DNA of 64,000 nt from a virus, in IMG/VR virus record IMGVR_UViG_3300049979_000188; one strand, 5' to 3'. Of this stretch, positions 24,531-59,749 are shown one piece after another. Positions within the stretch are counted from its first letter, which is position 1, and the number at the start of each line of letters is the position of its first letter. Both the position numbers and the translations under genes were made by a program. The notes below the pieces were generated by a model, which made no database searches, was not told the origin of the DNA, and saw nothing but the letters and a program-made list of their open reading frames with translations.

Positions 24531-24564
24531 AAAAGGCCCTCGGTAACGAGGGCCTTTGTTTTTT
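24531..24564 (+). terminator. Terminator whose loop carries the -35 of the next promoter
   Basis: AAAAGGCCCTCG-GTAA-CGAGGGCCTTTGTTTTTT. Confidence 0.8.
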
Positions 24565-24570
24565 CGTAGA
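24543..24570 (+). promoter_or_regulatory. ECF-type promoter motif GTAAC-N17-CGTAGA
   Basis: Read directly; ATG at 24600. Confidence 0.65.
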
Positions 24571-24599
24571 CTGGGCTTTCTACTCTTTAGTTTCCCTTT

Positions 24600-25244
24600 A
24601 TGGCCATTAGCAAAGGCAATGTTACCGTAGCGCTGCCAGCTTATCTCTATCGTCGCCTCACCCAGTACGACAAGGCCCTTTACCGGCGTATGCTGCCCCT
24701 GGTACTACTGGCCTTGCATCACCCTGCGGGTAGCTACCAGCGCAAGGTACTTGATGCCCTCTGCGATAACAAACTCCAGGTATACCTGGAAGAGCTGGCG
24801 GCGGGCAAAGTACTGACTGGAACAACCACCCACCAGGGTGCCATTACGCTTCGACTCTGGCCCGTGCGGGGAGGTCAAGTAGGCGAGCGTACGTTCGGCA
24901 TTCAAATGAGTGAGGCTAAAGTTAAGGAGGTCGAGGCTCTTAATGGGGAACGTATTCCGCTCTGGTCAGCTACGACTAGTGTTAAGTCCCTTGCCGCCAA
25001 GCCCCTTGCTGCACCAGTAGTTACGTCGGCTAGTACAGCGGCCATGCCGAGCGCCGAATTTCACATCGGCACCAAGGAAGGCCTTTTGCAGCGGGAGGGA
25101 AATCTAGTGGCCCTACCCTTGGCCCAGGCCCGGCAAGTGGCCCAGACCCAGGCTTACCTGGAACAGAGGCCCTATTACCTGTATCAGGTGAAAATGGTAG
25201 AGGTCGAAGTTATCGACCCCGAAAAACTTTTTGAGACCCGTTAG
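24600..25244 (+). CDS. Hypothetical protein
   Basis: 214-aa ORF. Confidence 0.7.
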   Translation: MAISKGNVTVALPAYLYRRLTQYDKALYRRMLPLVLLALHHPAGSYQRKVLDALCDNKLQVYLEELAAGKVLTGTTTHQGAITLRLWPVRGGQVGERTFGIQMSEAKVKEVEALNGERIPLWSATTSVKSLAAKPLAAPVVTSASTAAMPSAEFHIGTKEGLLQREGNLVALPLAQARQVAQTQAYLEQRPYYLYQVKMVEVEVIDPEKLFETR

Positions 25245-25247
25245 CCC

Positions 25248-25622
25248 GTGAAGGAAGCCCCCCAATCCACTAGTCGCGGCACGGTCGTCGTGGACAGCAA
25301 AGGCAAGCGAGAAGAGCTCGAAGTAGTCGATTTCCTTAAAGCCAGCTACCGTGATAACCGTCTTATCACAGTAGCTGGCGTCGAGGATGGTTCCTTTGTG
25401 CTGCTGGTGGAAAATCCACCCTCCTCAGGTCGCTCCAACGATAATAAAATGTGGCTTAGCGAAGAGAGCCTGCTCGGGGTTGCGCAAACCATTCTACTCT
25501 ACCTGGGAGCCAAGGGAGAAGACTTGCATGCCCTGGCCCTCAAGAGTGTGGGTAACGCCGATATTCGCTATTCGTATTCCGACAACCTGCACCCGCTTAA
25601 GCCCGATACGACATCTTTATGA
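25248..25622 (+). CDS. Hypothetical protein
   Basis: 124-aa ORF with ATGA coupling to the next gene. Confidence 0.65.
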   Translation: MKEAPQSTSRGTVVVDSKGKREELEVVDFLKASYRDNRLITVAGVEDGSFVLLVENPPSSGRSNDNKMWLSEESLLGVAQTILLYLGAKGEDLHALALKSVGNADIRYSYSDNLHPLKPDTTSL

Positions 25623-25960
25623 TACTGGCCATTATTGGTTCGCGAACCTTTACTGATTATGCGCGCCTGTGTCGGGTACTGGCCAACGTGCGTACCCCCA
25701 TTACGGAGATTGTCAGTGGGGGCGCACCCGGGGCGGACCGGCTCGGGGCAAACTACGCGCGGCGGCAGGGCATTTGGCTGCGTGAGTTGTTCGCTCTTTG
25801 GGACCTTTACGGCAAGAAGGCGGGACATTTGCGTAACAGCGACATCATTGACACGGCCGAAGCAGTGCTTGCTTTTTGGGATGGTATTTCCCCCGGCACC
25901 GAAGACAGTATCAAGAAAGCCCGGGCCCGGGGTATCCCTGTGCACGTTATTAATTTTTGA
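25619..25960 (+). CDS. SLOG-superfamily YspA/DUF2493-like protein
   Basis: LAIIGSRTF, IVSGGAPGAD, AGHLRN and AFWDGISPGT. Confidence 0.85.
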   Translation: MILAIIGSRTFTDYARLCRVLANVRTPITEIVSGGAPGADRLGANYARRQGIWLRELFALWDLYGKKAGHLRNSDIIDTAEAVLAFWDGISPGTEDSIKKARARGIPVHVINF

Positions 25961-26026
25961 GGTATTTAGCGGGAAAGCGAAGTTGGCTATTTTTACGTAA
26001 ATTTGCCATAGCTTTGTTTACTCGCC

Positions 26027-26407
26027 ATGGATATTCTCGATTTTTACCGCAATAAGTTAACTTCGCCTGAGTTTGAGCGTACCAGCTCGGCAAAAGGGTG
26101 GCATCGCTTTACTGACCAAGCGGTTGGCTTGGTCCCTGGATGCTGTTATATGGCGTTGGCTTTATGCGAATTAACGGGAGAAATTCTCAAAGGGGGCGGG
26201 ATTTACGAACCCCACGCCCGGTGGGTTCATACGGACTTAGATACGGGAGAACCCCGCAAAAAAGCCGGTACGGGCTGGTCCTTTTTAGACAATGGTCTCG
26301 GGGTAGTTTTATCCGACAAGCAGGTCTTTTATTATAAGCCGGTACCGGAATCATTCCAAGCGCAACAATTTAAATACGAATGGCTCACCTTTGCTCCTCG
26401 TTCCTGA
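26027..26407 (+). CDS. Hypothetical protein
   Basis: 126-aa ORF preceded by a TAAATTTG box (25998-26005). Confidence 0.65.
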   Translation: MDILDFYRNKLTSPEFERTSSAKGWHRFTDQAVGLVPGCCYMALALCELTGEILKGGGIYEPHARWVHTDLDTGEPRKKAGTGWSFLDNGLGVVLSDKQVFYYKPVPESFQAQQFKYEWLTFAPRS

Positions 26408-26586
26408 TGGCTGACAGGCTCCTCGATTACGAGCAGCTACCAGTTGAGTGTCAAGCGCAATTAGTTGCCTTAGGGGTCAATCCGCCCTATTTAGTTACCT
26501 TATCACTGGGTCGGCAGGAGACGCTTGCCGAGACGGCCCAGTGGCTGGTGTGTCGTTACGCTGAAATGCTTACCCCCACAACTTGA
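26407..26586 (+). CDS. Small hypothetical protein
   Basis: TGATG coupling with the upstream gene. Confidence 0.5.
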   Translation: MADRLLDYEQLPVECQAQLVALGVNPPYLVTLSLGRQETLAETAQWLVCRYAEMLTPTT

Positions 26587-26589
26587 CTT

Positions 26590-31212: not shown

Positions 31213-31278
31213 GAGCAGGGGAAAGGTAAAACAACAAAAGAGGGAGCGCCTATTCGGACCCCCTCTTTTGGGTTAGTA

Positions 31279-33676: not shown

Positions 33677-33704
33677 ACAGTCTGTTTGAGTTCTTTATGA
33701 CTAG

Positions 33705-33732
33705 TTTACGACGAAAAAAAGGTGCTCGTTAC
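33705..33732 (-). promoter_or_regulatory. ECF-type promoter motif GTAAC-N17-CGTAAA
   Basis: Plus strand TTTACG-N17-GTTAC; gene start at 33676. Confidence 0.7.
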
Positions 33733-34636: not shown

Positions 34637-34659
34637 AAAAAAGCAAGATATGCAGGGTG

Positions 34660-34687
34660 TTTACGCAAAAAAACCCGCAGCTGTTAC
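34660..34687 (-). promoter_or_regulatory. ECF-type promoter motif with the -35 in a terminator loop
   Basis: TTTACG-N17-GTTAC; overlaps hairpin AAAAAAACCCGC...GCGGGTTTTTTT (34667-34700). Confidence 0.7.
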
Positions 34688-34707
34688 CGCGGGTTTTTTT
34701 AGGGGAT

Positions 34708-38052: not shown

Positions 38053-38070
38053 AATCAGATGAGTCAGTAG

Positions 38071-38098
38071 TTTACGTAAGGTAGCAGATGCCCGTTAC
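38071..38098 (-). promoter_or_regulatory. ECF-type promoter motif; the -35 contains the upstream TAA stop
   Basis: TTTACG-N17-GTTAC. Confidence 0.7.
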
Positions 38099-38625
38099 GG
38101 CTTGGTTTCCTTAGCCAGCAGCGCCTCTACGCGGGCAAGCTCCTCGGGTGAGTGCGGCGTGCCGCCCCCGTTCATTTGCAAATACCACTGCAGAACTTCC
38201 GCCTTGGTTTGCAGCGAGTTTACGTTAATCTTGATGGTTTGCCGTAAGCTAAGTGAGCCTTCGAACTCCCGGTAGAAGTGCCCAAACGCAGGCACTTCAT
38301 TTTTCATGAACCCCAGAATCGCGCTGATGCGCTGCAGGCCATCGACTACCACGAATTCGTTGTACTTTGTTCTTTTCGAGCCATGCCAATCGGGTTTGTT
38401 GAGGTAGAGTACTAAGCCTGATTGCCCACCAGTGAGCACGTACTCCATGAAAGCAGTTTGCTGCGCCCGGGTCCACACGTGACCCCGTTGAAAGTCCGGC
38501 TCCAGCTGCAGGCCTCCTTCCTGCGGTAATTGCCACTCGGCAATCACGGCTGGTAAGTGGTTTAGGCTATAGTTACACTCCCAGCTACCGCTGCGGATGC
38601 GCTGTACAATGTCATCAAAATGCAT
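38095..38625 (-). CDS. Stand-alone DUF262 (ParB/Srx-like) domain protein
   Basis: LEPDFQRGHVWT..QQ..FM, VVDGLQRISAI and MNGGGTP. Confidence 0.85.
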   Translation of the reverse strand: MHFDDIVQRIRSGSWECNYSLNHLPAVIAEWQLPQEGGLQLEPDFQRGHVWTRAQQTAFMEYVLTGGQSGLVLYLNKPDWHGSKRTKYNEFVVVDGLQRISAILGFMKNEVPAFGHFYREFEGSLSLRQTIKINVNSLQTKAEVLQWYLQMNGGGTPHSPEELARVEALLAKETKP

Positions 38626-38636
38626 CGCCTACTAGC

Positions 38637-38870
38637 TTAGAAAAAAACAGTTGGATACAGGGTCTCGGCTTGGACAAGCAAATCAGCTAGTGATTCTTGC
38701 GCCGTGGCAAACCCTTCCCACGCACACTCGTGCGTTTTACCCTGGAAGGTAAAATTCCAGATGTGCCGGGCAAACCAATCACGGTCATTTTCGGGGCCCA
38801 TGCGCTTGGCCACCCGTTGCAGGGTAAGGTCAGCGCCGGCGTCGAGTAGAAGGACAAGTTTTTCATTCAT
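38637..38870 (-). CDS. Small hypothetical protein
   Basis: ATG 7 nt from a promoter -10. Confidence 0.6.
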   Translation of the reverse strand: MNEKLVLLLDAGADLTLQRVAKRMGPENDRDWFARHIWNFTFQGKTHECAWEGFATAQESLADLLVQAETLYPTVFF

Positions 38871-38877
38871 ACCGTAG

Positions 38878-38905
38878 TTTACGCCAAAAAAACCGCACCC
38901 GTTAC
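38878..38905 (-). promoter_or_regulatory. ECF-type promoter motif with the -35 in a terminator loop
   Basis: TTTACG-N17-GTTAC within AAAAAAACCGCACC...GGTGCGGTTT. Confidence 0.7.
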
Positions 38906-38927
38906 CAGGTGCGGTTTATCGGAAGTT

Positions 38928-40118
38928 TTAGCGCCGGCGTCGCCCCGGGTAGGGTTCCCAACGGGGGGGTTCACCTGAGTCGGGGTTACTGTCGTTTACC
39001 ACGGCCCAGGTACTAAGACCCAGACTCAGCAAAATAATGAGTACGTAGACCCCGATAAGCTGCCCCTGGGTCAGGGAGACTTGTAGGTAGGCAAAGTCGG
39101 CAAAGGCTTTTCGTTGCCAGTGCTGGGTGACAATACGCTCCACTTCCGGGGCCGCGGCCACCAGGTTTAGCTGCCCCTGGTGCAGAAACAGGTCCCGTAT
39201 CTTGATTTCGGCCATCGGCGTGGTCTCCCAGGAAAAGACATCGCACCACGTAACGGCCTGTTGCTGATTCAACCCAATGCAGACGACCAGCTCATTCTTG
39301 TTACCGCCTTCCCAGTAGTGACGCTGCCAGATAGCGGCCTCGCGGGGTTGATTTTCGAAGAGCAACACAAAGACACGGACTTGTTTTTTTACGCCCAGCA
39401 GGGCGTTGAGCTCATCGTAGGGCCGCACCAAGCGGTAGGGAATGGGTCGCAAGCTCAGCACCGCCGGCTGCAGGCCTTGACCCGTGATGGCCGGGTAGTC
39501 GTAGAGCTTATACTGCGTCAGCACCTGGGGCTTAACCGCCTGCAGGTGAAAGAGGCTGCGCGAGGCCTGGATTTTGTTTTCGTAGCGGTGCTTTTTAGTC
39601 AGTAGCGAGAGGCGCTCGCGTTCGCCGCCCCAGTGGCAGACGTAGCGGTCACCGTCGATTTCGTGCGAGGCGCGGCCTAGCTCGACGAACTGACGGGGCT
39701 GCGCAAATTGGGCGCAAAGAGCCTCGTACTCTTGCTTGTCAATACTGGTTTCCTCTCCCAACTGGTTGACCTTGCGCCACTGCGCCGAATGGTATTCCTC
39801 GTGCGAGCAATCGTACGTTTCCGAGCCGCAACTCTTAACCCCCTTCGAGTCAACCGTGCAGCAGCACTCGCGCGTGCACGTCTGGCTAACCCACTCGCTC
39901 CAGGGCTCGTCGTACTCGACCCGTACGATGTAGGAACCCAGGTATTCGGTGTCGCTGGTGTTTAAGTTAACCAGTACCAGTCGGCTAATAGCCAGCACTA
40001 GTACGGAAGCGCCCAGTAAGAGAGCGATTTCCCACCACACGATGCGGTCGCGAAAAAAGCCGAGCAATACGCCCACTGCGACCAGGGGAATCAGGATGGC
40101 AAACCATTCGAGTTGCAT
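38928..40118 (-). CDS. Membrane-anchored conserved phage protein
   Basis: Two N-terminal and one C-terminal TM helices; Cys-rich CTRECCC...CGSETYDC segment; WEGGNKNELVVC. Confidence 0.8.
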   Translation of the reverse strand: MQLEWFAILIPLVAVGVLLGFFRDRIVWWEIALLLGASVLVLAISRLVLVNLNTSDTEYLGSYIVRVEYDEPWSEWVSQTCTRECCCTVDSKGVKSCGSETYDCSHEEYHSAQWRKVNQLGEETSIDKQEYEALCAQFAQPRQFVELGRASHEIDGDRYVCHWGGERERLSLLTKKHRYENKIQASRSLFHLQAVKPQVLTQYKLYDYPAITGQGLQPAVLSLRPIPYRLVRPYDELNALLGVKKQVRVFVLLFENQPREAAIWQRHYWEGGNKNELVVCIGLNQQQAVTWCDVFSWETTPMAEIKIRDLFLHQGQLNLVAAAPEVERIVTQHWQRKAFADFAYLQVSLTQGQLIGVYVLIILLSLGLSTWAVVNDSNPDSGEPPRWEPYPGRRRR

Positions 40119-40133
40119 AGAAGCGAGAATGCT

Positions 40134-40164
40134 AAAAAAAGCCCAGGATAACCTTATCCTGGGC
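40134..40164 (-). terminator. Intrinsic terminator beginning at the predicted start site of the next promoter
   Basis: GCCCAGGATAA-CC-TTATCCTGGGC with an A-tract on the plus strand. Confidence 0.75.
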
Positions 40165-40167
40165 TAG

Positions 40168-40195
40168 TTTACGGAGAAAAGACACTAGGTGTTAC
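40168..40195 (-). promoter_or_regulatory. ECF-type promoter motif
   Basis: TTTACG-N17-GTTAC. Confidence 0.7.
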
Positions 40196-41364
40196 TACGA
40201 GAACCAGTGCGGGGCGAACTGCGCCATGTTGTCGGTAATCAGGCTGTTATGCTGCTCCCGAATACCCATACCAGCCGCCTCGCCCCCGATAACCCAGGCG
40301 CCCAGTACGGGAAGCCAGCCGTCAAAGGTCTGAATGGGGAAGAAGCGCTGCAGAATATAGCCTTCCTCACCGTATTCGCCCTCACGGGCTTCTTCCACAC
40401 GGTCACCGTCGTAAATGCTCGTATTTTGGCCTTCGCGGCTATAGACGGGTTTGCGGCACCACTTACCGGTCGGATAGGTCGCTTCGAGTTCCGCCTGGTC
40501 GGGGCTCAGGTAGTGGGCTTCGAGCAGTAGCGGATGGTTGGGGAACAGTTTCCAGAGGTACACCAGCAGCATCTTGTTGGAGAGGATGGCCTTGTAAGGA
40601 GGCTCCACCCAAGTCGTCGTACCGTAGTTGGGCGCCAGATGTTGGGCGAACTCCTCGTTGAGCAGCCACTCCCAGGGGTAGAGCTTAAAGAGGTTGCGGA
40701 TGGGCATACCTTCCGGCGTACAGAAGCGGTTTTGCTGCCGGCTATCAACACTGATTTCATCCACGTAAAGTACGCGGGTGGTGTAGCCGGCCTGGGCGGC
40801 GCACTCGGCCACGTAGCTTACGGTCATGTAGTCTTCCGCACTGTCGCGGCCGCAGGCCAGGTACAAGTCTACGCCGTCGGGACCGGTTGGCAAGTAAGGC
40901 TTACAGGTCCGCAGGTGGGCCACCAGGCGCTCATGCAAACTGTTCCACTGGTCAGGTTTACCGGCTGATTGTAGCCAATCGTACTGGATGACGGCTGCTT
41001 CGAGTAGGGAAGTGGGGGTATCGGCGTTGAATTCGAGCAGCTTAATCTGAGTAGTGCGGCTGTCATAGCCCAAATCGAAGCGGCCGTAAAGCGACACGTC
41101 ATCCTCGTTCCAGCTGCGTGTAATCAGGGCCGCATCGTCGGGGTTGATGAAGAATTGGGCCCAGAGCTGGTGGTCGATGACGTGTTGCACGACCTGTAGG
41201 CACATGCCGAAGAGCTCATTGGTAGCGGCTTCGAGTCGGTCTACTTCGCCGCTGGAGAAGTGATAGGCACTCGTTTCCGTGTAGTAGCCTTCGTGGTAGA
41301 GCATGCCCCGCTCGGCCAGGCGCTGCGTCAGTGCGGGGCGAGGCGTAATGGAGATGCGCTGCAC
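40195..41364 (-). CDS. Glutathionylspermidine synthase-family ATP-grasp protein (YgiC/YjfC-like)
   Basis: LYGRFDLGY, KLLEFNADTPTSLLEAA, LFKLYPWEW, LSNK.LL..LW, KPVYSREGQN and GAWVIG. Confidence 0.92.
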   Translation of the reverse strand: MQRISITPRPALTQRLAERGMLYHEGYYTETSAYHFSSGEVDRLEAATNELFGMCLQVVQHVIDHQLWAQFFINPDDAALITRSWNEDDVSLYGRFDLGYDSRTTQIKLLEFNADTPTSLLEAAVIQYDWLQSAGKPDQWNSLHERLVAHLRTCKPYLPTGPDGVDLYLACGRDSAEDYMTVSYVAECAAQAGYTTRVLYVDEISVDSRQQNRFCTPEGMPIRNLFKLYPWEWLLNEEFAQHLAPNYGTTTWVEPPYKAILSNKMLLVYLWKLFPNHPLLLEAHYLSPDQAELEATYPTGKWCRKPVYSREGQNTSIYDGDRVEEAREGEYGEEGYILQRFFPIQTFDGWLPVLGAWVIGGEAAGMGIREQHNSLITDNMAQFAPHWFS

Positions 41365-41693: not shown

Positions 41694-41706
41694 GGGGTAA
41701 GTCAGC

Positions 41707-41738
41707 AAAAGGGCCACATTCAGTAGCGAATGTGGCCC
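41707..41738 (-). terminator. Intrinsic terminator
   Basis: GGGCCACATTC...GAATGTGGCCC with an A-tract on the plus strand. Confidence 0.75.
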
Positions 41739-41740
41739 AG

Positions 41741-41768
41741 TTTACGTTAAAAAGAAGGTGCCCGTTAC
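41741..41768 (-). promoter_or_regulatory. ECF-type promoter motif; the -35 contains the upstream TAA stop
   Basis: TTTACG-N17-GTTAC. Confidence 0.7.
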
Positions 41769-42589: not shown

Positions 42590-42612
42590 GAAAAACAGAA
42601 AGGGGAAAAGAG

Positions 42613-42780: not shown

Positions 42781-42786
42781 GGGTAC

Positions 42787-43362: not shown

Positions 43363-43396
43363 GGGAAGAAAAAAGGGGGTTGGTGAATATACTAAG

Positions 43397-43424
43397 TTTA
43401 CGGAAAAATAAAAGTCCCCGTTAC
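43397..43424 (-). promoter_or_regulatory. ECF-type promoter motif; the -35 contains the upstream TAA stop
   Basis: TTTACG-N17-GTTAC. Confidence 0.7.
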
Positions 43425-43687
43425 GAGTTCAGCGACGTAGTCGCTCGCTTTCTGCGGGCCCACTCGTATTGGATGACAGCATACACGTAGTAAGCCCAGA
43501 GAAAAACGATGCACAGGCCCACCAGTAGGTGCACTAGCCAAGTAGGGCGCGACTGGGTCTGGCTGAGCTTGTGCACCATTACCTGGTAGTGGGCACGGCC
43601 AAGCAAGGTGACGGCCAGTAGTAGAACCACGCCCAGCGCCAGGTAAAAAACGGTGGCCAGCAGCAGGTAGTAACAAAGTGATTCCAT
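43421..43687 (-). CDS. Small two-TM membrane protein
   Basis: Start trimmed to MESLC. Confidence 0.65.
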   Translation of the reverse strand: MESLCYYLLLATVFYLALGVVLLLAVTLLGRAHYQVMVHKLSQTQSRPTWLVHLLVGLCIVFLWAYYVYAVIQYEWARRKRATTSLNS

Positions 43688-43694
43688 GCGTAGG

Positions 43695-44534
43695 TTAGGT
43701 ACTTCTTTTAGGCTTACGAGTCCCAGGGCGGGTCCGAAAGGCATGCGTGGGGTCGAAATCGTAGCGCGTGACCTGCTGTTTCTCCGTCAAGGGCAAGGCC
43801 AGGGGATAGGTACTCAGGAATTGGTTTGACAGGTACTGCTCCATACGTTGAAAAGCTTGGGGCGCATCGACGGCACGGTAAAACTCCAAGTCTTTGAGCA
43901 CTGGGTTCGTGACAAAAGCTTCTGCGTTCAAGCTAAAGCTCGGAGCCTGGATTACGTCGCGAAAGAGGCTATCATAGTCCGTATTTTCCAGCAGGGCCAG
44001 GCGTTCGTACTCGACGCGAGGCACTAGAATACGGTGCTGCCCTATCTGGCGGGCCCGGCGCTCAAAGTAGTACGTCGGTGGGGTAAGGGTGCTAAGCTTA
44101 GTCAGGCGCTCGGCAGAGGGTTCGCGGAACTCCGGGAAGTTCTCAGCCAGGACGTCTACGTCGTAGTAGCCTCGGCAACGACTCGTTAGACTAGCGGACG
44201 TGTTGAGGTAGTAATTATACCCAGCTTTGACCTGCGTTAGCAAGTATAGTTTGCCGCAAAAGCCAACCAGTGTCAGCGTAAGCGTCAGCTCGGTCTCACC
44301 CAGGCGCATGCTATGCGGGGTATAAACTCCGAGTAGTTTACCCAGTTCGTAGAGGGGTTTAGGCAAGTCTTTCAACACCCCGTTTTTCCCCCACTCCGTG
44401 CCCATGTGGCTCACACCCGAGTTGCGCAAGTTAAGCTCGTAAGGCTCGCGTTTATACACGACAGCCCGGTCCTGGCCCAGGGCCAGTAAGCTGTCGTAAT
44501 AATCTTTGTTCTCCTGCTTGCTGATGATTTTCAT
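43695..44534 (-). CDS. Conserved phage hypothetical protein
   Basis: MKIISKQENKDYYD... and NPVLKDLEFYRAVDA.QAFQ..EQYL. Confidence 0.75.
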   Translation of the reverse strand: MKIISKQENKDYYDSLLALGQDRAVVYKREPYELNLRNSGVSHMGTEWGKNGVLKDLPKPLYELGKLLGVYTPHSMRLGETELTLTLTLVGFCGKLYLLTQVKAGYNYYLNTSASLTSRCRGYYDVDVLAENFPEFREPSAERLTKLSTLTPPTYYFERRARQIGQHRILVPRVEYERLALLENTDYDSLFRDVIQAPSFSLNAEAFVTNPVLKDLEFYRAVDAPQAFQRMEQYLSNQFLSTYPLALPLTEKQQVTRYDFDPTHAFRTRPGTRKPKRST

Positions 44535-44543
44535 AGTAGCTAG

Positions 44544-44571
44544 TTTACGCCGGACTCGGAGAACTCGTTAC
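44544..44571 (-). promoter_or_regulatory. ECF-type promoter motif
   Basis: TTTACG-N17-GTTAC; ATG 9 nt downstream. Confidence 0.7.
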
Positions 44572-44581
44572 TGCTTGCCGG

Positions 44582-45061
44582 TTAAAAAACCTGGTAGAAG
44601 AGTTCTCCGCCGCCGCCATCACGCAGCTCCAACTCCTTTACCTTCTCGGCTAGCATCTTACCCATGCGACTTCCTAAAAAAAGGAGACCCTCGACCGTGT
44701 AGTCATCGAAACCAAGCACGGCATCGGCCCCGTTTACGCTGCGTAGCATTAGCTGTAAGTCCAGCAGGGCTGAGGTGTAGAGGCTTAAACCAGGGCCGAC
44801 CAGCGAGGCCCACCCTTGGTAGTAAGCCAGTAGAATGGGCGGGTATAAGCCAGGCTGGGCATCCAGGTAGAAGACGGTAAGCAGGGCCATTCGTTCCTTA
44901 CTAGCTGGCAGAATCTCTTCCCCTTCATGGGTTCCCTCCATGCTGGGCAATAAATCAGGGTCTTCCTCGTAAACGTGAATTAGCACGTTACTGGCTTGAA
45001 AACGACCCAGCAAGGGGCGCGTAACAAGATGGGCGCTAAGCGCACTGACTGAAAACGCCAT
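44582..45061 (-). CDS. Hypothetical protein
   Basis: 159-aa ORF. Confidence 0.65.
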   Translation of the reverse strand: MAFSVSALSAHLVTRPLLGRFQASNVLIHVYEEDPDLLPSMEGTHEGEEILPASKERMALLTVFYLDAQPGLYPPILLAYYQGWASLVGPGLSLYTSALLDLQLMLRSVNGADAVLGFDDYTVEGLLFLGSRMGKMLAEKVKELELRDGGGGELFYQVF

Positions 45062-45062
45062 C

Positions 45063-45281
45063 TTAGCGAAGAGTCAAAAAAACGACCAGCATACCCGTAC
45101 TACAAAGCGGCCACAACGCCGCTGAGAGTCGTTGCAGGTAAGGATGGCGGGCCGCCCACTGCTGGTAGAGCTCGTAATTTTTAGTGACGGGTACCCCGCA
45201 CATAGAAGCCAGTAATTGGGCTGCAAAAGCACCACTTACCCCTGAAGCGGCTAGCAATAAAAACAAGTGCGCGTAGTTCAT
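45063..45281 (-). CDS. Small membrane protein
   Basis: Two hydrophobic segments. Confidence 0.6.
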   Translation of the reverse strand: MNYAHLFLLLAASGVSGAFAAQLLASMCGVPVTKNYELYQQWAARHPYLQRLSAALWPLCSTGMLVVFLTLR

Positions 45282-45646
45282 ACACCAGTCAGTAAAGAAG
45301 TGGAAGGATAATGATGAAAAAATGCACCGTCGGCCAGCAGCAGGTGGCGCCCACTCGTGGCCATGAAGCGCTCGCCCGGTACCGAGTCCAACCAGCAGTG
45401 AAAGCCACTTTGCCTGGCCACCGCTGCCAGCTGCTTTAGGGCGGGCTCCCAGGCGGCGCTGTTTTCCCAGTAAAGCAGGCAGCTTTTAAGGGTGAGTAGG
45501 CCCCGCTTATCCTGGTGTACGTAATAGTAGGCACGCCGGCCGACTGGGACCGCGCGTAAACGCGGCAAGTTGGCCGAGAGGGGGTATTGGGGCGTGGTTG
45601 AGTCCATAGAAGCGTACAAAGCTACTAAGTTTACGTTGAATTGCAA
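45278..45646 (-). CDS. Hypothetical protein
   Basis: 122-aa ORF; start codon uncertain (TTG). Confidence 0.55.
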   Translation of the reverse strand: MQFNVNLVALYASMDSTTPQYPLSANLPRLRAVPVGRRAYYYVHQDKRGLLTLKSCLLYWENSAAWEPALKQLAAVARQSGFHCWLDSVPGERFMATSGRHLLLADGAFFHHYPSTSLLTGV

Positions 45647-45659
45647 GCAAAATAAACCT

Positions 45660-45690
45660 AAAAAAAGAGAGGCCTAGCGCCTCTCTTTTT
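45660..45690 (-). terminator. Intrinsic terminator
   Basis: AAAAAAAGAGAGGC-CTA-GCGCCTCTCTTTTT. Confidence 0.8.
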
Positions 45691-45697
45691 CTTGCCC

Positions 45698-46648
45698 TTA
45701 CGCGCTTGGATTAGCCCGTTGTACGTCGGGATGGTTGTAGTTAAACACTACCACTGAGAACGGGTTGGGGAAGCCTTCGCGCTTCTCCACGCGGATGCAG
45801 CCGCAATCACGAAGTTCGTTAATAAGGTTACGGCGCTCGAAATCGGGTAATTGAGTCATTATGTCGGTGAGTCTTCGCAAAAAAGGCGACAACCAAACCT
45901 CCGACGATTTATGCTCAACTGCGTCACGCAGTAGGTAGCTCAGGCAGGTAAATGCGCGTTCTCCGCTAACGCGTCGCTGGGGCATAAACCCCGTGCCCGC
46001 GACGGTACTTTTTACCTCCTGCACTTCCAACTCGTTCTCAATCGGAACTACCGGGTAGCTGGGCGCCAGGGTAAGGGGCGGCAAAACTGCCGCATTTTCC
46101 AGCTCAGTTAGCGCCGCGCGCCGACTCTCGCTAAGAACGCTCAGGGCGTCGACGTAATGCTGGTCGCCGATAATTTGTAGCAGGTCCCCGGAAGTCGATT
46201 GCTTGAAACCCACCACCAGTATCTGACGACCCTGGCGACGTAAATGCTGGATAATGGGGATATAATCTCGGTCCCCGGCCATGAATACGAAACTGGTAAT
46301 ATCGGGCCGGGTGTAGAGCATTTCCAATCCGTCAATGCAGAGCTGCATATCGGCCGCATTTTTATGCTGTGTACCCAGCACATTGTGCGTGCTAGCACCC
46401 AGCAAATAAAGCGCCCCTAGCTGAGCACCCGGGCCCATGCGCTCGAAATCAGCGTAAGCATTAATAACCAGGGGCTCCAGGTGGAGTTTTTCTCGTAAAT
46501 GCCGCTGTAGCCCGCGCACAGTTTCGAGTACGCACTCCTGAGGGTCGCTCAAGGCCGGGTAGAAATTTTTAAAGTAGTAATAAAAGTTTTCGTAATCAAT
46601 TAGTATGGTGGCGTACCCTTTGGGTGGCGCAAGACTGCTTGGATTCAT
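45698..46648 (-). CDS. NYN (LabA/DUF88, PIN-like) ribonuclease-domain protein with a C-terminal extension
   Basis: ILIDYEN, KNAADMQLCID and MAGDRDYIPII..LRRQGRQILVVG. Confidence 0.88.
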   Translation of the reverse strand: MNPSSLAPPKGYATILIDYENFYYYFKNFYPALSDPQECVLETVRGLQRHLREKLHLEPLVINAYADFERMGPGAQLGALYLLGASTHNVLGTQHKNAADMQLCIDGLEMLYTRPDITSFVFMAGDRDYIPIIQHLRRQGRQILVVGFKQSTSGDLLQIIGDQHYVDALSVLSESRRAALTELENAAVLPPLTLAPSYPVVPIENELEVQEVKSTVAGTGFMPQRRVSGERAFTCLSYLLRDAVEHKSSEVWLSPFLRRLTDIMTQLPDFERRNLINELRDCGCIRVEKREGFPNPFSVVVFNYNHPDVQRANPSA

Positions 46649-46657
46649 TCTTTTTTT

Positions 46658-47005
46658 TTACTTAATAGGCGAGTTTAATTCACTGAGCGTCTTATAAATG
46701 ACAGCCGTGAGCTTTTTCATCATGGGCGCCAACCACCCGTTGCCGGTAAACGAGTGTTTCACTTCTTCCCCGCTGCGTTCGCGCCCGTAGACGTAGGTTG
46801 AATCAGCCGCCAGATAGGTATAACTGATTTCGCCAAATTCCACCACGTTGATGGGTTGCACCAAGCTCACCCGGTGGGTGGCGGGCAGCAAAGCGGCCGC
46901 ATCGAGCAAGCGCTGGCGATTGGCATTGCGCCGTTCACGCGTCTTACCGGTTAAGGTATTGATAGGCCCGGTGGGCCGGTAGAGGGGCGGGGCAGTGTCA
47001 GACAT
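46658..47005 (-). CDS. Hypothetical protein
   Basis: Start trimmed to MSDTAPP. Confidence 0.65.
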   Translation of the reverse strand: MSDTAPPLYRPTGPINTLTGKTRERRNANRQRLLDAAALLPATHRVSLVQPINVVEFGEISYTYLAADSTYVYGRERSGEEVKHSFTGNGWLAPMMKKLTAVIYKTLSELNSPIK

Positions 47006-47058
47006 AAAAAAAAAAGGGATGTGTACGTAGTTTACGTACACATCCCCTGGGTCGTTAC
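47006..47058 (-). promoter_or_regulatory. ECF-type promoter motif (47031-47058) embedded in a 14-bp-stem hairpin terminator
   Basis: GGGATGTGTACGTA-GTT-TACGTACACATCCC with an A10 tract; TTTACG-N17-GTTAC; the -35 contains the upstream TAA. Confidence 0.7.
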
Positions 47059-48398
47059 CTGGGCCTGGGTGAACTTTGCAGGAGCCGCCTGGAGGGGGCA
47101 ACCACGTTAGCAGGTACAGTTGGTTGCGGACCCGTGTTAGTCGACTTGCCGGCTACGCGCACGGGGGGTAGCGTAACGGGCGGTGGATTTTCATAGACGG
47201 CACTAAGGGCCTCAAAGGCGCGTACCGGGTTATGACGCTCGCGCATCAGCTCACCCTGGATAGTGGCCATCGAGAGGCGGCGCTCCGTAAAAAGAGTGGC
47301 AAGTTTAGTCGCCAGCTCCGAGGCCTGGGGAAAGCTAGTGGCTGGATAAAAGCGGTTGAAGATTTCCTTTACCAGTGGCCCGCTGGGGTTGTCAATCAGC
47401 ACCCGGACGTCAACTCGCCCGGGGCGTATGAGGGCCGGGTCCAGGCACTCGGGGTGATTGGCCGTCATAATGAGCAAGGTGCCGTGTCCGGAGCTCACGC
47501 CGTCGATGGCGTTGAGTACCCCACTGTAAGTCAGCCCTCGCTGGGTATCACCCGCCACTTCCCGCCCTGGCAGGACGGTGTCTACGTCTTCTAAGACGAT
47601 AATGCAGTGACGCAAGCTGTTAATTAAGCCGCTAAGCGTAGCATCCGTCAAATCCGGGTCACCCAGGTTAAGAATGTAGAGCGGGAGTGCCCAATGGCCA
47701 GCCAGGGCCTTGATAAGCGAGCTTTTGCCCCCGCCAGGCGGGCCGTAGAAAATGTAGCCCCGACGCCACGAAATACCCCGCTCGGCGTACCACTGCTCAC
47801 TGGCGAGGAACTCCCCAATATCGTGTTGGAGCGTCTGCTTGATGTCGGCGTCTAATATGACCGTATCGAGCGGACGCGGTAGCTGGCGTTCGCAATACCC
47901 CCAATTCGTGCCCGATTGCGTGCTAACCAGGATGCTGTTATCAGTAGGCGTGTATAAGCGCTTACCTTCCGCTAGGATGGTATCCCAGAATGCGCGGTCA
48001 CGTCCCAGCATCTGTAGGGTTAAGCGTACCAGTAGCTGCCCAGTTGCCCCGTTACCCGTACTAGCCGTATAGGAATCGCGTTCCAGCAGAAGGCGTTTAC
48101 CCGCGTAGCGGATAAGGTACTTACCCGGGGCAGGGCCCAATAAGGATTCGTCGTAGCGACTAATGGCCGTCACGTGCGGGGTTTGCGGCAAATACTTGTT
48201 ACACCAGCTCAGCAGCCAGTAGAACGTTTCCCCCCGCTGCTCGTCCACGCTTAGCGAAGACGTAAAGCGACGCTTGAGCAAATACGTGATATTGGTAAAC
48301 GTGCTTTTGCCCCAGTTGAGCAAGTTTCCCCCGGCGGCCCCTACTAGCACAGCCAGGTACGTGGGAATAGGTGGTAAAATTGGTAAAGGCATGCGCAA
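47055..48398 (-). CDS. BCS1-like AAA+ ATPase with an N-terminal TM anchor
   Basis: RRGYIFYGPPGGGKSS, IIVLEDVD, LTYSGVLNAIDG and MTANHPECLDPALIRPGRVD. Confidence 0.9.
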   Translation of the reverse strand: MRMPLPILPPIPTYLAVLVGAAGGNLLNWGKSTFTNITYLLKRRFTSSLSVDEQRGETFYWLLSWCNKYLPQTPHVTAISRYDESLLGPAPGKYLIRYAGKRLLLERDSYTASTGNGATGQLLVRLTLQMLGRDRAFWDTILAEGKRLYTPTDNSILVSTQSGTNWGYCERQLPRPLDTVILDADIKQTLQHDIGEFLASEQWYAERGISWRRGYIFYGPPGGGKSSLIKALAGHWALPLYILNLGDPDLTDATLSGLINSLRHCIIVLEDVDTVLPGREVAGDTQRGLTYSGVLNAIDGVSSGHGTLLIMTANHPECLDPALIRPGRVDVRVLIDNPSGPLVKEIFNRFYPATSFPQASELATKLATLFTERRLSMATIQGELMRERHNPVRAFEALSAVYENPPPVTLPPVRVAGKSTNTGPQPTVPANVVAPSRRLLQSSPRPR

Positions 48399-48451
48399 AC
48401 CAGCTGAAGGGTGAGTACCGGTATAGCTTTCTTGGCGAATGCAGTGCCCGG

Positions 48452-48500
48452 TTTACGCAAAAATACACCCCACTGTGCAAAAGACAATGGGGTGTACTAA
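48452..48500 (-). promoter_or_regulatory. Variant promoter motif TGCAC-N17-CGTAAA with the -35 in a terminator loop
   Basis: TTTACG at 48452, GTGCA at 48475, inside hairpin TACACCCCA...TGGGGTGTA. Confidence 0.45.
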
Positions 48501-48514
48501 TTTTAACGCGCAGA

Positions 48515-49609
48515 TTACGAAAGTGCTGCAGTAGTCGCACTAATCGTACCCAGCAGGGCCGGGGCCGCGATACGGCTAATGGTTACGGGCTGCTGCAGGC
48601 TGGCGGAGGCTTTCCAGGCGCCGGCCAAGGCCGCGGGCTCGTCCGTGAATACCTGGCCGTCGCTGGTCAAAAACAGGGTATTGCCTTGCGCAAAGAGTTG
48701 GGCCAGCAGAATGCCCACAGTACTTGGGGCTTCGGTGTCAAGTACAATGGCAGGGTTAGCGGGAGCGGGGGTTTCTGGCATGTCAATGACTGGGGGAAGT
48801 GGGAGGGTGAGAGGCCCAAGTGCTGTAACAACGCTTGAATCTACTTCTACGGGAAATTTACTGGTCTGACTAGGAGCGGGCTCGGGTAGAGGCTCAGCTA
48901 CTGCCACGCTAACGTCTTCTTTGCTTGCTGGCTTATGGTAGGAAGTACCCGTAAGCGGCAAATCCAAGATAGCCCGAATTTCGTCCTGGGTTTTTGCTTC
49001 TTCGATAGCCGTTAAGGCCAGGCTATGGATAAGGTTGAGCTCTTCGTTTAGCTCTCCCGTAGGGTCAGCACTGGGGTTGATGTGCTTCGTAACGGGGTTC
49101 CAGTCAGTGGGCAAAACAGCTATCTCTGTGACAAAATAAACACGGATAAGCTTACCTGCTGCATTGTTTCGCGCATAAACAAACTTAACTCGGGCTGGAA
49201 GTCCTTCGCCTGCCTGACGTTCCAAATAGAAGAAACGCGTGGTTTTCTTCGGAAACTTTTCTTTTGGGGCTACGGTGACCACGGGCTCCACTACAATGGG
49301 AACCGTTACTTCTGGAGCTGGAGCTGGAGCTGGAGCTGGAGCTGGATGTTGACGCTCGCTGCCACGGGGTCCGCGTAGGACGGCAGGTAAGCGAGATGTG
49401 CTGCTTACTTCATCAAGGCCAATGAGTTGTCCCCGTAGGCGCTCAGCCGCACTAAGGGCGCGTTCATAACGCCGGTTAAAGGCTGATTGCTGCCGCCAAC
49501 GCTCGAATTCAGCCCAACTCGGCATGCCGGGCTTTCGCAGCAGCTCGTGCAGCTTCGTGCCTTTTGCGAGCTCATCAAAAATAGATTTTTGCAGCGGGGT
49601 TAGTTTCAT
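48515..49609 (-). CDS. Putative DNA-binding protein: TerS-like HTH, Pro-Ala linker and Arm-type DNA-binding domain
   Basis: ELAKG.KL.ELLRKPGMPSW..F.RW....F..RYERA; FYLE...VTEIAVLPTDWNP...ELNEEL resembles the Bacteroidota integrase Arm domain. Confidence 0.55.
   Translation of the reverse strand: MKLTPLQKSIFDELAKGTKLHELLRKPGMPSWAEFERWRQQSAFNRRYERALSAAERLRGQLIGLDEVSSTSRLPAVLRGPRGSERQHPAPAPAPAPAPEVTVPIVVEPVVTVAPKEKFPKKTTRFFYLERQAGEGLPARVKFVYARNNAAGKLIRVYFVTEIAVLPTDWNPVTKHINPSADPTGELNEELNLIHSLALTAIEEAKTQDEIRAILDLPLTGTSYHKPASKEDVSVAVAEPLPEPAPSQTSKFPVEVDSSVVTALGPLTLPLPPVIDMPETPAPANPAIVLDTEAPSTVGILLAQLFAQGNTLFLTSDGQVFTDEPAALAGAWKASASLQQPVTISRIAAPALLGTISATTAALS
49312..49346. repeat. Hexamer tandem repeat (CTGGAG)x5 plus a partial copy, encoding a PAPAPAPAP linker
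   Basis: Read directly. Confidence 0.85.
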
Positions 49610-51573: not shown

Positions 51574-51601
51574 GGACAGGGGTTGTTGGTTTCGTAGCTA
51601 G

Positions 51602-51629
51602 TTTACGGAAAACCCGGTTTACCCGTTAC
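51602..51629 (-). promoter_or_regulatory. ECF-type promoter motif
   Basis: TTTACG-N17-GTTAC; gene start at 51573. Confidence 0.7.
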
Positions 51630-53374: not shown

Positions 53375-53404
53375 GGTGCGTCAAGTAGAGTAAGTACTGG
53401 CTGG

Positions 53405-53440
53405 TTTACGCACAACAGGCCCGGCTTGTTACGCCGGGCC
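53405..53440 (-). promoter_or_regulatory. ECF-type promoter motif (53405-53432) with the -35 in a hairpin loop
   Basis: TTTACG-N17-GTTAC within GGCCCGGC...GCCGGGCC. Confidence 0.7.
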
Positions 53441-53449
53441 CGGAGAGAA

Positions 53450-55589: not shown

Positions 55590-55614
55590 AAGAAGGAAAG
55601 TGAAAGAGGAGTAG

Positions 55615-55642
55615 TCTACGTTTTCTCCGGGCCCGGCGTTAC
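55615..55642 (-). promoter_or_regulatory. ECF-type promoter motif GTAAC-N17-CGTAGA
   Basis: TCTACG-N17-GTTAC. Confidence 0.65.
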
Positions 55643-55938
55643 TAGGTACGCCAAAAGGTGTTCACCAGTTTGCGCCGCTGGGTAGGGCTGGCCAGTAGCA
55701 GCATCCGGGCCAGGCCTATGCCGGCTAAATCACCTTTCTCAGCAGCGTACGCCTGGCACCATTCGATGCTGGAGGTCCCCAAGTTTAGGTCGTCCAAAAC
55801 GATGTGTAGGCTGCCGCCTACTGCGTTACCAGGCAGGGCGTAATAGGCTCGCGTAGCGGCGACGAGCTCAGGCAGTATTGGTTTACGCGTTAGTACGAGC
55901 AGCTCCTCAAAGCTGGTAGCTAATTCGGTGTCAGACAT
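55642..55938 (-). CDS. Small conserved phage protein
   Basis: GGSLHIVLDD.N...I.WC pattern. Confidence 0.65.
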   Translation of the reverse strand: MSDTELATSFEELLVLTRKPILPELVAATRAYYALPGNAVGGSLHIVLDDLNLGTSSIEWCQAYAAEKGDLAGIGLARMLLLASPTQRRKLVNTFWRT

Positions 55939-55995
55939 AAAAAAAAGGGGACCTAGTGAGTCCCCTTTTTACGCTAAAAGTCACTAAGCTGTTAC
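55939..55995 (-). promoter_or_regulatory. ECF-type promoter motif (55968-55995) followed directly by a terminator hairpin
   Basis: TTTACG-N17-GTTAC (the -35 contains the upstream TAA); AAAAAAAGGGGAC..GTCCCCTTTTT. Confidence 0.7.
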
Positions 55996-57768: not shown

Positions 57769-57779
57769 AAGTGGCTAAC

Positions 57780-58367: not shown

Positions 58368-58391
58368 AAGAGATGAGTGAGAGGGCGATAG

Positions 58392-58949
58392 TTACTTGGC
58401 GCCGAATTCAAGGTTGAGTTTTTCGTGGAGCGCACGACGAGACGCCAACTCCCGCGCCTCCTCGGCCCTTGCCTTCTCTTCCGCCCGTTGCCGCTCCGTT
58501 TCCTTGATTTCGGCCAGCATGGCCTGGGCCCGGCTCGTGGCGGGTTCAATCACTTCCTTGAGCAGCTGCTGGTAGAAGAAAGTATTGAGCTCCTCCGCCG
58601 CCGTGTAGGCCTCATCGGTCTGCTCGCTGTAGGGCGTTTGGGTTAGGAAGTGGTTGAGGTAGCCAACCTCCGTGCAGTAGGGGTCAGACGAGTACACCAG
58701 CACCCCGTTACGCAGAATATGCAGGCGGTAATCGGCTTCCCCGGAAGCCACCCGCTCATTGGCCAGCAGTAGCAGGCTGCACTCGTGGACGAGCTGCGCC
58801 GTAGTAAGGGGGCCGTAGAGCTGTAAATCGCTGTCAAAACTAGCCATTAAGCAGCCACGGATTACGTCGTCGCTGTTGGGCTTGTAGGCGAAGAGGTGAT
58901 ATAAAGGAGGGGCTTCCTTATGAGCCTGCACATCAGCAAGGGTAAACAT
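58392..58949 (-). CDS. Hypothetical protein with a C-terminal coiled coil
   Basis: Start trimmed to MFTLADV. Confidence 0.7.
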   Translation of the reverse strand: MFTLADVQAHKEAPPLYHLFAYKPNSDDVIRGCLMASFDSDLQLYGPLTTAQLVHECSLLLLANERVASGEADYRLHILRNGVLVYSSDPYCTEVGYLNHFLTQTPYSEQTDEAYTAAEELNTFFYQQLLKEVIEPATSRAQAMLAEIKETERQRAEEKARAEEARELASRRALHEKLNLEFGAK

Positions 58950-58983
58950 GGTCAGACTAGTTAAGGGGCTACAGACAAGCAAG

Positions 58984-59011
58984 TATACGTGAAAGGCTAC
59001 CCCTCCGTTAC
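58984..59011 (-). promoter_or_regulatory. ECF-type promoter motif GTAAC-N17-CGTATA
   Basis: TATACG-N17-GTTAC. Confidence 0.6.
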
Positions 59012-59296
59012 GACCGCTGGAAAGTAGCGCAGCCCCGAAGCGCTCACGAATAAATCGGCTTGCAAGGCAGCCTCCAGTCGGGCTACCTGGTCGTAGAAGC
59101 CATCCAGCCCAAAGAGGAAAATGGCTAGCTCATGGGGGCTCATGTGGAGGCGCTCGGCAAGCTCGGGCGCTGTTATGCCCTGGCGAGCAAGAACCGTGTT
59201 AAGCTCTTCGCTAAGGTCAAAGGTTTTGGAAACCGAAATTTTAACCGCCACGGGCGTGCGATTCAGTACCTGGGTAACGAGCGGGTCAGTGGGCAT
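58997..59296 (-). CDS. Xre-like HTH protein
   Basis: LARQGITAPELAERLHMSPHELAIF...LEAAL; start trimmed to MPTDPL. Confidence 0.6.
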   Translation of the reverse strand: MPTDPLVTQVLNRTPVAVKISVSKTFDLSEELNTVLARQGITAPELAERLHMSPHELAIFLFGLDGFYDQVARLEAALQADLFVSASGLRYFPAVVTEG

Positions 59297-59300
59297 TAGC

Positions 59301-59672
59301 TTACGAGTTTGGGTCAAAATGACGGCAGCAGTGGTCGTGGCCGAGTCGCTCGACAAGTTTAGGCTCTACCAGGCACTGGCCGTAATCAGTGGTGCTGCTG
59401 GGCCCATACATGGCTAGGGCAGGCTTACTGCGCTTGTAGAAGCTGCAGTTACGGCACTGGCGTACCAGCGGCTCCGTGCTTACCGGTTCGGGCCACTGCA
59501 GCAAGCGTTTGAGCTGGTCACCGAGTTGGGCGGCTTGCTTGGACTCCGCCCCACTTAGGCCGTGCGTGGCCACGTGCTGGCCACCCTCGGCATCAAGGGC
59601 AAAAACGATTAGCTGCGTTGCCCCGAGCTGCTCGCGATAACGCTTGACGCTAGCAATGGTAATCTTTTCCAT
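59301..59672 (-). CDS. Hypothetical protein with a C-terminal Cys cluster
   Basis: CRNCSFY...GQC...CCRHF. Confidence 0.65.
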   Translation of the reverse strand: MEKITIASVKRYREQLGATQLIVFALDAEGGQHVATHGLSGAESKQAAQLGDQLKRLLQWPEPVSTEPLVRQCRNCSFYKRSKPALAMYGPSSTTDYGQCLVEPKLVERLGHDHCCRHFDPNS

Positions 59673-59702
59673 GGGTGTAGAAGAAAAAAATATGAAAGCC
59701 AG

Positions 59703-59749
59703 TTTACGCAAAACCCACCCTGTGTCGTTACGGACTAAGGGTGGGTTTT
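59703..59749 (-). promoter_or_regulatory. ECF-type promoter motif (N18 spacer, 59703-59731) with the -35 in a terminator loop
   Basis: TTTACG-N18-GTTAC inside AAAACCCACCCT...AGGGTGGGTTTT. Confidence 0.6.

Follow-up and report, generated by a model that had tools for sequence, protein, structure and literature searches.

Terminator hairpins predicted to share their DNA with the next ECF-type promoter at gene junctions of an uncultured jumbo phage

Where does a phage with very little DNA between its genes end one message and begin the next? The question is raised by a stretch of 64,000 nt from the IMG/VR record IMGVR_UViG_3300049979_000188 (the window, that is, the whole of the DNA analyzed here), in which a greedy call of open reading frames (ORFs) gives about 93 genes, about 96% coding sequence and co-directional genes separated by a median of 12 nt. 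A search of a protein collection placed the window proteins on a single contig of 202,851 bp; the source of the window is an uncultured jumbo phage of about 203 kb. An earlier reading of the letters alone (the sequence-only reading) had named ten sites at which a terminator hairpin would be interlocked with the promoter of the next gene. All ten exist at the coordinates it gave, which are the low coordinate of each motif match (each module is named here by the first nucleotide of its -35 box), and we hold, with moderate confidence, that they are the packed terminator/promoter boundaries of the phage.

The promoter side of these boundaries is a motif with two boxes. The pattern GTAAC-N16-18-CGTAAA has 15 matches in the window against 0.12 expected from dinucleotide shuffles, and the looser GTAAC-N16-18-CGTA[AGT]A has 20 copies, 19 of them with a spacer of 17 nt; with one variant, at 48479, whose -35 reads TGCAC, the promoter set comes to 21. 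All 20 motif copies are oriented with the flanking genes (on the plus strand from 6 to 25 kb and on the minus strand from 33 to 60 kb), and 0-46 nt separate the predicted start site from the following start codon. Boxes containing AAC and CGT at this spacing are typical of promoters of extracytoplasmic function (ECF) sigma factors, and the sequence supports the view that GTAAC-N17-CGTA(A/G/T)A behaves as an ECF-type promoter. A scan of the window for sigma70-type promoters gave no excess over shuffles. The window also carries a sigma factor gene of the corresponding kind:

1206..1787, plus strand: gene for an ECF-type sigma factor of 193 aa; Pfam Sigma70_r2 at 27.9 bits, above the cut-off, and NCBIfam TIGR02937 (sigma70-ECF) at 54.8 bits (cut-off 42.9), full-length

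A second sigma-like ORF, at 4678-5472, suggested by another reader, gave no match in Pfam or NCBIfam and was set aside. The start site was taken as the seventh nucleotide after the -10 heptamer, the usual ECF geometry. One start codon lies on this predicted +1 (38870), one 2 nt after it (44534) and one 1 nt before it (23122); by their closeness to it, these three codons constrain the position of the start. The genes that begin at these codons would be leaderless or almost so.

Ten of the 21 promoters overlap a hairpin on the sense strand, one dominant hairpin per site, with a stability of -16.8 to -25.0 kcal/mol and z scores of -3.9 to -7.8 against dinucleotide shuffles. When the 22 nt upstream of the -35 and the spacer were each shuffled on their own, as was the 45-nt stretch past the -10, the hairpins fell into discrete classes: a strong hairpin surrounds the -35 at six promoters (24543, 34687, 38905, 53432, 59731 and the variant 48479) and follows the -10 at three (40195, 41768 and 55995), and at 47058 it runs from the spacer across the -10. 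The other 11 copies have no hairpin beyond chance, so that the hairpin is an addition made at some junctions and not a component of the promoter. Weak stems around the -35 at 33732, 40195 and 41768 were not above shuffles and were left uncounted; the idea that a hairpin around the -35 is a general property of the promoter was dropped, since such weak stems do not exceed shuffles. The ten hairpins look like intrinsic terminators on the sense strand, with a GC-rich stem, and T-runs of 4-10 lie directly 3' of the stem at eight of them.

At the six promoters of the first class (layout A) the -35 box lies within the hairpin, whose 3' arm (9-12 nt) makes up the spacer together with the T-run (5-8 nt), as the sequence-only reading had described; the T-run ends 0-2 nt before CGTA. 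At all six, the upstream gene stops 17 to 38 nt short of the -35, and the 5' arm begins just past its stop codon. GTAAC falls in the loop, which at 24543 and 38905 consists of GUAA alone and is closed by a G-C pair, as a tetraloop of the GNRA type.

24532..24571, plus strand: layout A; hairpin 24532-24557 with loop GUAA, -35 GTAAC at 24543-24547, T-run in the spacer, -10 CGTAGAC at 24565-24571; -21.6 kcal/mol, z -5.0; upstream stop at 24526-24528, next ATG at 24600
34659..34701, minus strand: layout A; 16-bp hairpin around the -35 (34687-34683), T7, -10 at 34665-34659; -22.1 kcal/mol, z -5.0; next ATG at 34636
38877..38917, minus strand: layout A; 12-bp hairpin with loop GUAA, -35 at 38905-38901, T7, -10 at 38883-38877; -21.1 kcal/mol, z -4.8; ATG 38870 on the predicted +1 (leaderless)
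48451..48498, minus strand: layout A variant; hairpin of 15-16 bp, TGCAC at the -35 position (48479-48475), T5, -10 CGTAAAC at 48457-48451; -23.2 kcal/mol, z -6.1
53404..53442, minus strand: layout A; 10-bp GC hairpin 53442-53416 with the -35 (53432-53428) in its loop, weak TGTTGTG, -10 at 53410-53404; -23.2 kcal/mol, z -3.9
59702..59749, minus strand: layout A with an 18-nt spacer; 12-bp stem, 16-nt loop with the -35 (59731-59727), TTTT paired in the stem, -10 at 59708-59702; -23.5 kcal/mol, z -5.5

The 17-nt spacer that had been claimed for this layout thus holds everywhere but at 59731. RNA arriving from upstream would have its 3' end at about -20 to -14 relative to the next promoter. The U-tract itself seems to come with the promoter: in the 15 copies that have a 17-nt spacer and no layout-A hairpin, T makes up 41% of the last nine spacer positions, against 22% in the window, and 17% of the first eight. 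Since the T-rich end of the spacer is found without hairpins too, the terminator borrows a feature of the promoter as its U-tract, and a GC-rich inverted repeat around the -35 is, judged from these spacers, predicted to suffice to make such a promoter into a terminator plus promoter.

At the other four promoters (layout B) the hairpin starts at or over the -10/start region, again in agreement with the sequence-only reading: 1-2 nt past the -10 heptamer at 40195 and 41768, over the last A residues of the heptamer at 55995, and upstream of the heptamer at 47058, where the hairpin contains it. Pfam supports three of the four genes upstream of these modules.

40133..40195, minus strand: layout B; stop TAG of a glutathionylspermidine-synthase-like gene overlapping the G of the -35 (40195-40191), -10 at 40173-40167, hairpin 40165-40140, T7; -19.3 kcal/mol, z -4.8; next ATG at 40118
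41707..41768, minus strand: layout B; stop TAA inside the -35 (41768-41764), -10 at 41746-41740, hairpin 41738-41711, TTTT; -21.4 kcal/mol, z -7.0
47006..47058, minus strand: layout B; stop TAA of a BCS1-like AAA gene inside the -35 (47058-47054), 16-bp hairpin 47048-47014 with the -10 (47036-47030) in its 5' arm and loop, T10 adjoining ATG 47005; -25.0 kcal/mol, z -7.8
55939..55995, minus strand: layout B; stop TAA of an RlaP-like gene inside the -35 (55995-55991), -10 CGTAAAA at 55973-55967, hairpin 55970-55942, T8 adjoining ATG 55938; -16.8 kcal/mol, z -5.1

The length of about 45 bp given earlier for the modules fits layout A, in which hairpin and -10 together span about 40-48 bp, and is too short for layout B (53-63 bp).

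What decides between the two layouts? The position of the upstream stop codon predicts it: the stop lies 17-38 nt before the -35 in layout A, and in layout B it overlaps the -35 or lies inside it (beginning 2 nt before the box or, inside it, at its second position). No non-coding DNA is left before the -35 at the layout-B sites, and the hairpin is accordingly placed after the -10. This rule, like the enrichment of the motif, the hairpins and their registers relative to the boxes, can be read directly from the DNA. Stop codons in or overlapping the next -35 are found at seven junctions of the window, with TAA within G-TAA-C at 55995, 47058, 41768, 43424 and 38098 and TAG overlapping the G of the -35 at 40195 and 55642.

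The predicted start sites have consequences for the new RNA. With a start at the sixth or seventh nucleotide after the heptamer, RNA begun at 47058 or 55995 cannot, on folding, form the hairpin, and RNA begun at 40195 or 41768 keeps 6-7 AU-rich pairs (-5 to -8 kcal/mol) separated by 2-4 unpaired nt from the U-run. This supports the escape proposed in the sequence-only reading: under the usual ECF geometry the new transcript would lose the whole 5' arm at 47058 and 55995, and its GC-rich base at 40195 and 41768. We infer that new layout-B transcripts, having lost all of the 5' arm or its GC-rich base, escape the stop.

Do the hairpins act in RNA? G.U pairs occur in six of the ten, and six are stronger on the sense strand than on the opposite one by at least 1.8 kcal/mol (of the rest, one is weaker there and three show no difference); the four terminators of the window that lack a full promoter are all stronger on the sense strand. 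The pairing together with the strand bias favors a role at the RNA level. Moreover, when the modules are aligned on their promoters, identity outside the boxes averages 31% and reaches at most 39%, and only the 12 bases of the boxes are common. No two sites have the same arms, which leaves no shared binding site for a protein; the features that recur are pairing and the T-run. The modules have a single shared stretch, of 22-23 nt, between two layout-B modules (46991-47013 and 55924-55946, minus strand); it runs from the last part of the hairpin through the T-run into the coding sequence, where it takes in the first four codons (ATG TCT GAC AC). The proteins downstream of the 47058 and 55995 modules are not paralogues and are otherwise unrelated, and the stretch may mark a joint left by recombination, or it may signal the start of translation.

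From these registers we infer promoter activity, start sites and termination as follows. The phage ECF-type sigma factor would redirect the core of the host RNA polymerase to GTAAC-N17-CGTA(A)AC promoters, and at ten junctions the intrinsic terminator of the upstream message would share its DNA with the promoter of the following one. If the upstream gene stops at least 17 nt before the -35, the hairpin would wrap around the box, its 3' arm and T-run filling a 17-nt spacer that is otherwise free of sequence constraint, and the new RNA would start about 25 nt beyond the end of the read-through RNA, free of the hairpin. If that gene extends into the -35, leaving no room ahead of the box, the hairpin would instead lie across the start site: the upstream RNA would have both arms and stop, and the RNA born at the promoter, short of the 5' arm or of its GC-rich base, would pass.

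Do related phages arrange their boundaries in the same way? The searches made here reached no close relative. Megablast of 10 kb of the window against 50,697 phage records gave no match, and tblastn against the same collection a best identity of 42%. In IMG/VR protein searches the BCS1-like protein and P0122 had no relatives and the Namat half a single one, at 34%; an alignment-based scan of IMG/VR and a metagenome scan returned relatives of 41% identity at most, and a scan of genome contigs with P0124 reached 40% at best. For P0122-P0124, homologues of 61% and 57% lie on contigs of 44.8, 291.6 and 306.4 kb. The orthologous junctions of four AT-rich distant relatives (loci L253, L175, L172 and L243) have neither motif nor hairpins and are uninformative on covariation, and no RNA run containing 38600-48550 is on record, the single run listed being probably the DNA sample of origin.

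Two other contigs use a promoter of the same type. The first (G001, IMGVR_UViG_3300047552_001889; 141 kb, 35% G+C) shares with the window a 396-aa protein at 39% identity and has 16 matches to GTAACA-N15-CGTA against 10 for the reversed control, so that not all of them need be real. Its spacers are AT-rich and contain no hairpin arm; at three loci (L278, L285 and L286) the T-run of a GC hairpin adjoins the -35 without a gap (TTTTTT followed by GTAACA), and there the T-run may double as U-tract and upstream promoter element. A motif scan of IMG/VR with GTAACG-N16-CGTAAACT returned mostly single chance matches, the only informative contig being the second one (G002, IMGVR_UViG_3300049979_000197), a fragment of 56.8 kb and 55% G+C with no protein similarity to the window ORFs. 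It has ten matches to GTAAC-N17-CGTA against none in the control, and three sites were examined, at 35666, 7295 and 38703 (loci L288-L290). One site is a perfect 22-bp palindrome whose 3' arm begins with the -35 and has TTTT at its end, ahead of CGTATAC, which is layout A; at another, a canonical terminator lies 8 nt upstream of the -35. One promoter of this contig directly follows the 3' end of a tRNA. Tight packing of terminator and ECF-type promoter thus appears to be common in these phages, full interlock being frequent, as far as these sequences indicate, only in the phage under study.

Several observations weigh against reading the ten modules as packed boundaries. The sigma factor of 1206-1787 is only a candidate reader of the GTAAC/CGTA motif; the U-tracts are poor at 53432 (TGTTGTG) and at 59731 (TTTT wholly paired in the stem); and the distant relatives with the same kind of promoter put terminators beside the -35 and not within the promoter, so that the interlock is not a conserved requirement. 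To these must be added, for layout B, that promoter-proximal terminators inside 5' untranslated regions (UTRs) are documented in other phages: in Pseudomonas phages they abort most transcripts, so that mainly short ones result (Putzeys et al., 2024; PMC10914365). The chief rival for this layout is that the hairpins belong to the new transcript, as promoter-proximal attenuators or as stabilizing stem-loops at its 5' end. At 40195 and 41768, where the stem begins 1-2 nt past the heptamer, a start 3-4 nt past it would leave a 9-bp stem (-14 kcal/mol at heptamer+4), and some self-attenuation is possible. In the Pseudomonas phages, as in layout B, the terminator directly follows a phage promoter; however, the start lies upstream of the whole hairpin there, and here it is predicted to fall within the 5' arm or past it. 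A hairpin wholly downstream of the start is impossible at 47058, whose 5' arm is upstream of any possible start, and would require a start no more than 5 nt past the heptamer at 55995 (from heptamer+6 on, that hairpin is gone) and no more than 4 nt past it at 40195 and 41768. Moreover, the usual ECF geometry is in keeping with the start codons found on the predicted +1 at other junctions, and all four layout-B hairpins follow a gene that needs a terminator. We consider this rival unlikely.

That the hairpins act after transcription, in protecting or processing 3' ends on read-through RNA, the T-runs being merely the T-rich spacer of the promoter, is in our judgment about as unlikely. T-rich spacers do exist without hairpins, two of the U-runs are weak, and three strong hairpins without a promoter, 15-20 nt before start codons, imply expression by read-through; but the T-runs that follow a GC-rich stem at eight of the ten hairpins are classical terminator anatomy, and each of the ten is paired with a fresh promoter, as a true stop requires. 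Possibly, termination within the next promoter leaves the core polymerase there for the phage sigma to rebind and restart. The predicted release point of layout A, at -20 to -14 of the next promoter, would suit such recycling, and E. coli polymerase has been shown to slide after termination and to re-initiate, in a sigma-dependent manner, at promoters close by (PMC6978380, PMC6978322 and PMC10372574). The sequence does not require it, however, since compaction alone accounts for both layouts and for the stop-codon rule, and relatives do without the overlap; we regard recycling as very doubtful. It is just as doubtful that the row of modules is a hand-off device, passing one polymerase from gene to gene with the transcript reset at each junction. 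Least probable is that the inverted repeats act in DNA, either as a palindromic site for a regulator or, as the sequence-only reading had speculated by analogy with phage N4, as a cruciform exposing the -35. The layout-A repeats are indeed centred on or near the -35, and an inverted repeat at the promoter is what the two phages have in common. The promoters of the N4 virion RNA polymerase, a single-subunit enzyme, always need their hairpin, with conserved bases in stem and loop; here, in contrast, the promoter is a two-box sigma promoter, about half of the copies (11 of 21) are free of repeats and the arms differ at every site. The analogy also conflicts with the G.U pairs, which become A.C mismatches on the other strand, where six of the ten stems are weaker. 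In addition, sigma region 4 binds duplex -35 DNA, and an extruded -35 would be single-stranded.

Is the arrangement, read as packed boundaries, new? It is less so than had been assumed: the promoter-early stem-loop (PeSL) cassettes of the T4-type phages RB49 and phi1 already interleave terminator stem-loops with promoter boxes (Arbiol et al., 2010; PMC2839356). The five PeSL subclasses are defined by the place of the stem-loop, which may lie between the boxes, cover the one or the other, stand upstream, or follow the -10 directly, ahead of the start. The stem-loops were proposed to end upstream transcription, and one of them matched rrnB T1 in a lacZ reporter (PMC2839356). In both systems promoter and stem-loop occupy the same few dozen bases in several positional classes (here six modules of layout A and four of layout B), and the PeSL principle covers both layouts. 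The differences lie in the parts. PeSL promoters are host sigma70-type early promoters with an AT-rich upstream region, and those described here are ECF-type and private to the phage; PeSL cassettes have stems of G- and C-runs and a Shine-Dalgarno site, which the present phage lacks; and they are conserved over about 100 bp, recombine and form mini-circles, whereas the modules, at 31% identity outside the boxes, show no such homology. Enclosure of the -35 in the loop, reuse of the spacer T-run as U-tract and stop codons inside the -35 distinguish the present phage, and the flanked genes, mainly ORFans in PeSL, include sizeable enzymes. The arrangement thus appears, by this comparison, to be a variant of an already published principle, with an ECF promoter and without long shared cassette sequence.

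Two further comparisons concern the parts themselves. The hairpins resemble canonical intrinsic terminators in their GC-rich stem of 10-16 bp, short loop and T-run on the sense strand after a stop codon, often with an upstream A-run; a canonical terminator normally precedes the next promoter, however, and here its loop or 5' arm carries the promoter boxes. The promoters resemble those of sigmaV, M, X and W of B. subtilis, in which a -35 with AAC and a -10 with CGT are set about 17 nt apart and a homopolymeric T-tract in the spacer acts as a stimulatory element (Gaballa et al., 2018; PMC5758882). The T-tract adjoins the -35 in B. subtilis and the -10 here, where in six copies it also follows a hairpin.

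The modules reveal no new mechanism. They show how far signals can be compressed in a jumbo phage, with a stop codon in the -35, the -35 as a hairpin loop and the spacer as a U-tract, and they carry the PeSL principle, described for sigma70 promoters in T4-type coliphages, over to ECF promoters that are private to a phage. Their recognition helps in drawing transcription units of uncultured Bacteroidota phages from sequence, and stop-and-restart parts of 40-63 bp are possible compact insulators for synthetic operons.

How much DNA is saved, and what happens at the other junctions? Junctions with both signals measure 44-116 nt, mostly 47-76 nt; terminator, promoter and a 20-nt leader set end to end would take about 90 nt. 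A tally of sense-strand hairpins with a T-run, at about -17 kcal/mol or stronger, at co-directional junctions gave ten that overlap a promoter copy, one (45692) that precedes CGTAAAC with a poor -35, and three without a promoter. The one before CGTAAAC is the only case of near-canonical order, and no promoter copy in the window has a distinct terminator upstream of its -35. This junction and the 11 promoters without a significant hairpin are:

6103..6131, plus strand: promoter, no hairpin (CGTATAT)
9628..9656, plus strand: promoter, no hairpin; T6 in the spacer
13257..13285, plus strand: promoter, no hairpin
23088..23116, plus strand: promoter, no hairpin (CGTAGAC); ATG 6 nt past the heptamer
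33704..33732, minus strand: promoter, weak 5-bp stem around the -35; T7 in the spacer
38070..38098, minus strand: promoter, no hairpin; upstream stop TAA inside the -35
43396..43424, minus strand: promoter, no hairpin; T-rich spacer, stop TAA of the upstream ORF inside the -35
44543..44571, minus strand: promoter, no hairpin; ATG 2 nt past the predicted +1
45635..45692, minus strand: near-canonical order; terminator hairpin 45692-45660 with T7, then a CGTAAAC -10, with GTTTA at the -35 position
51601..51629, minus strand: promoter, no significant hairpin
55614..55642, minus strand: promoter, no hairpin (CGTAGAC); upstream stop TAG overlapping the -35
58983..59011, minus strand: promoter, no hairpin (CGTATAC)

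The three promoter-less hairpins with T-runs, at 17360-17393 and 21347-21383 (plus strand) and 31235-31270 (minus strand), have stabilities of -22 to -28 kcal/mol and lie 15-20 nt before the next start codon. Because no GTAAC/CGTA follows any of them, the genes downstream need read-through or an unrecognised promoter.

The window has a G+C content of 55-58%, and contains no tRNA genes and no match to any Rfam family. Its leaders have no Shine-Dalgarno sequence, GGAGG being absent, which fits a host of the Bacteroidota type. Pfam finds phage-like and accessory functions among its proteins, including a Mre11/Rad50-like fusion, an SNF2 helicase with an intein, a BCS1-like AAA ATPase, a glutathionylspermidine-synthase-like ATP-grasp enzyme, an RlaP-like nucleotidyltransferase and a PPDK-like protein. 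In the fusion, a single ORF of 1190 aa (9683-13255, plus strand) joins an Mre11-like phosphoesterase to a Rad50/SbcC-like ATPase. The SNF2-family helicase (59756-62434, minus strand) is split by an intein with Hint and LAGLIDADG domains; the homologues of this helicase in L253 and L175 lack the intein, and the alignments to them bridge the gap. Gene order also differs at 38928-43362 (minus strand), which was compared with loci L093-L252: in most of the distant relatives the homologue of 42787-43362 directly precedes that of 38928-40118, and in the window three genes, among them the glutathionylspermidine-synthase-like one, separate the two, each group standing behind its own promoter module.

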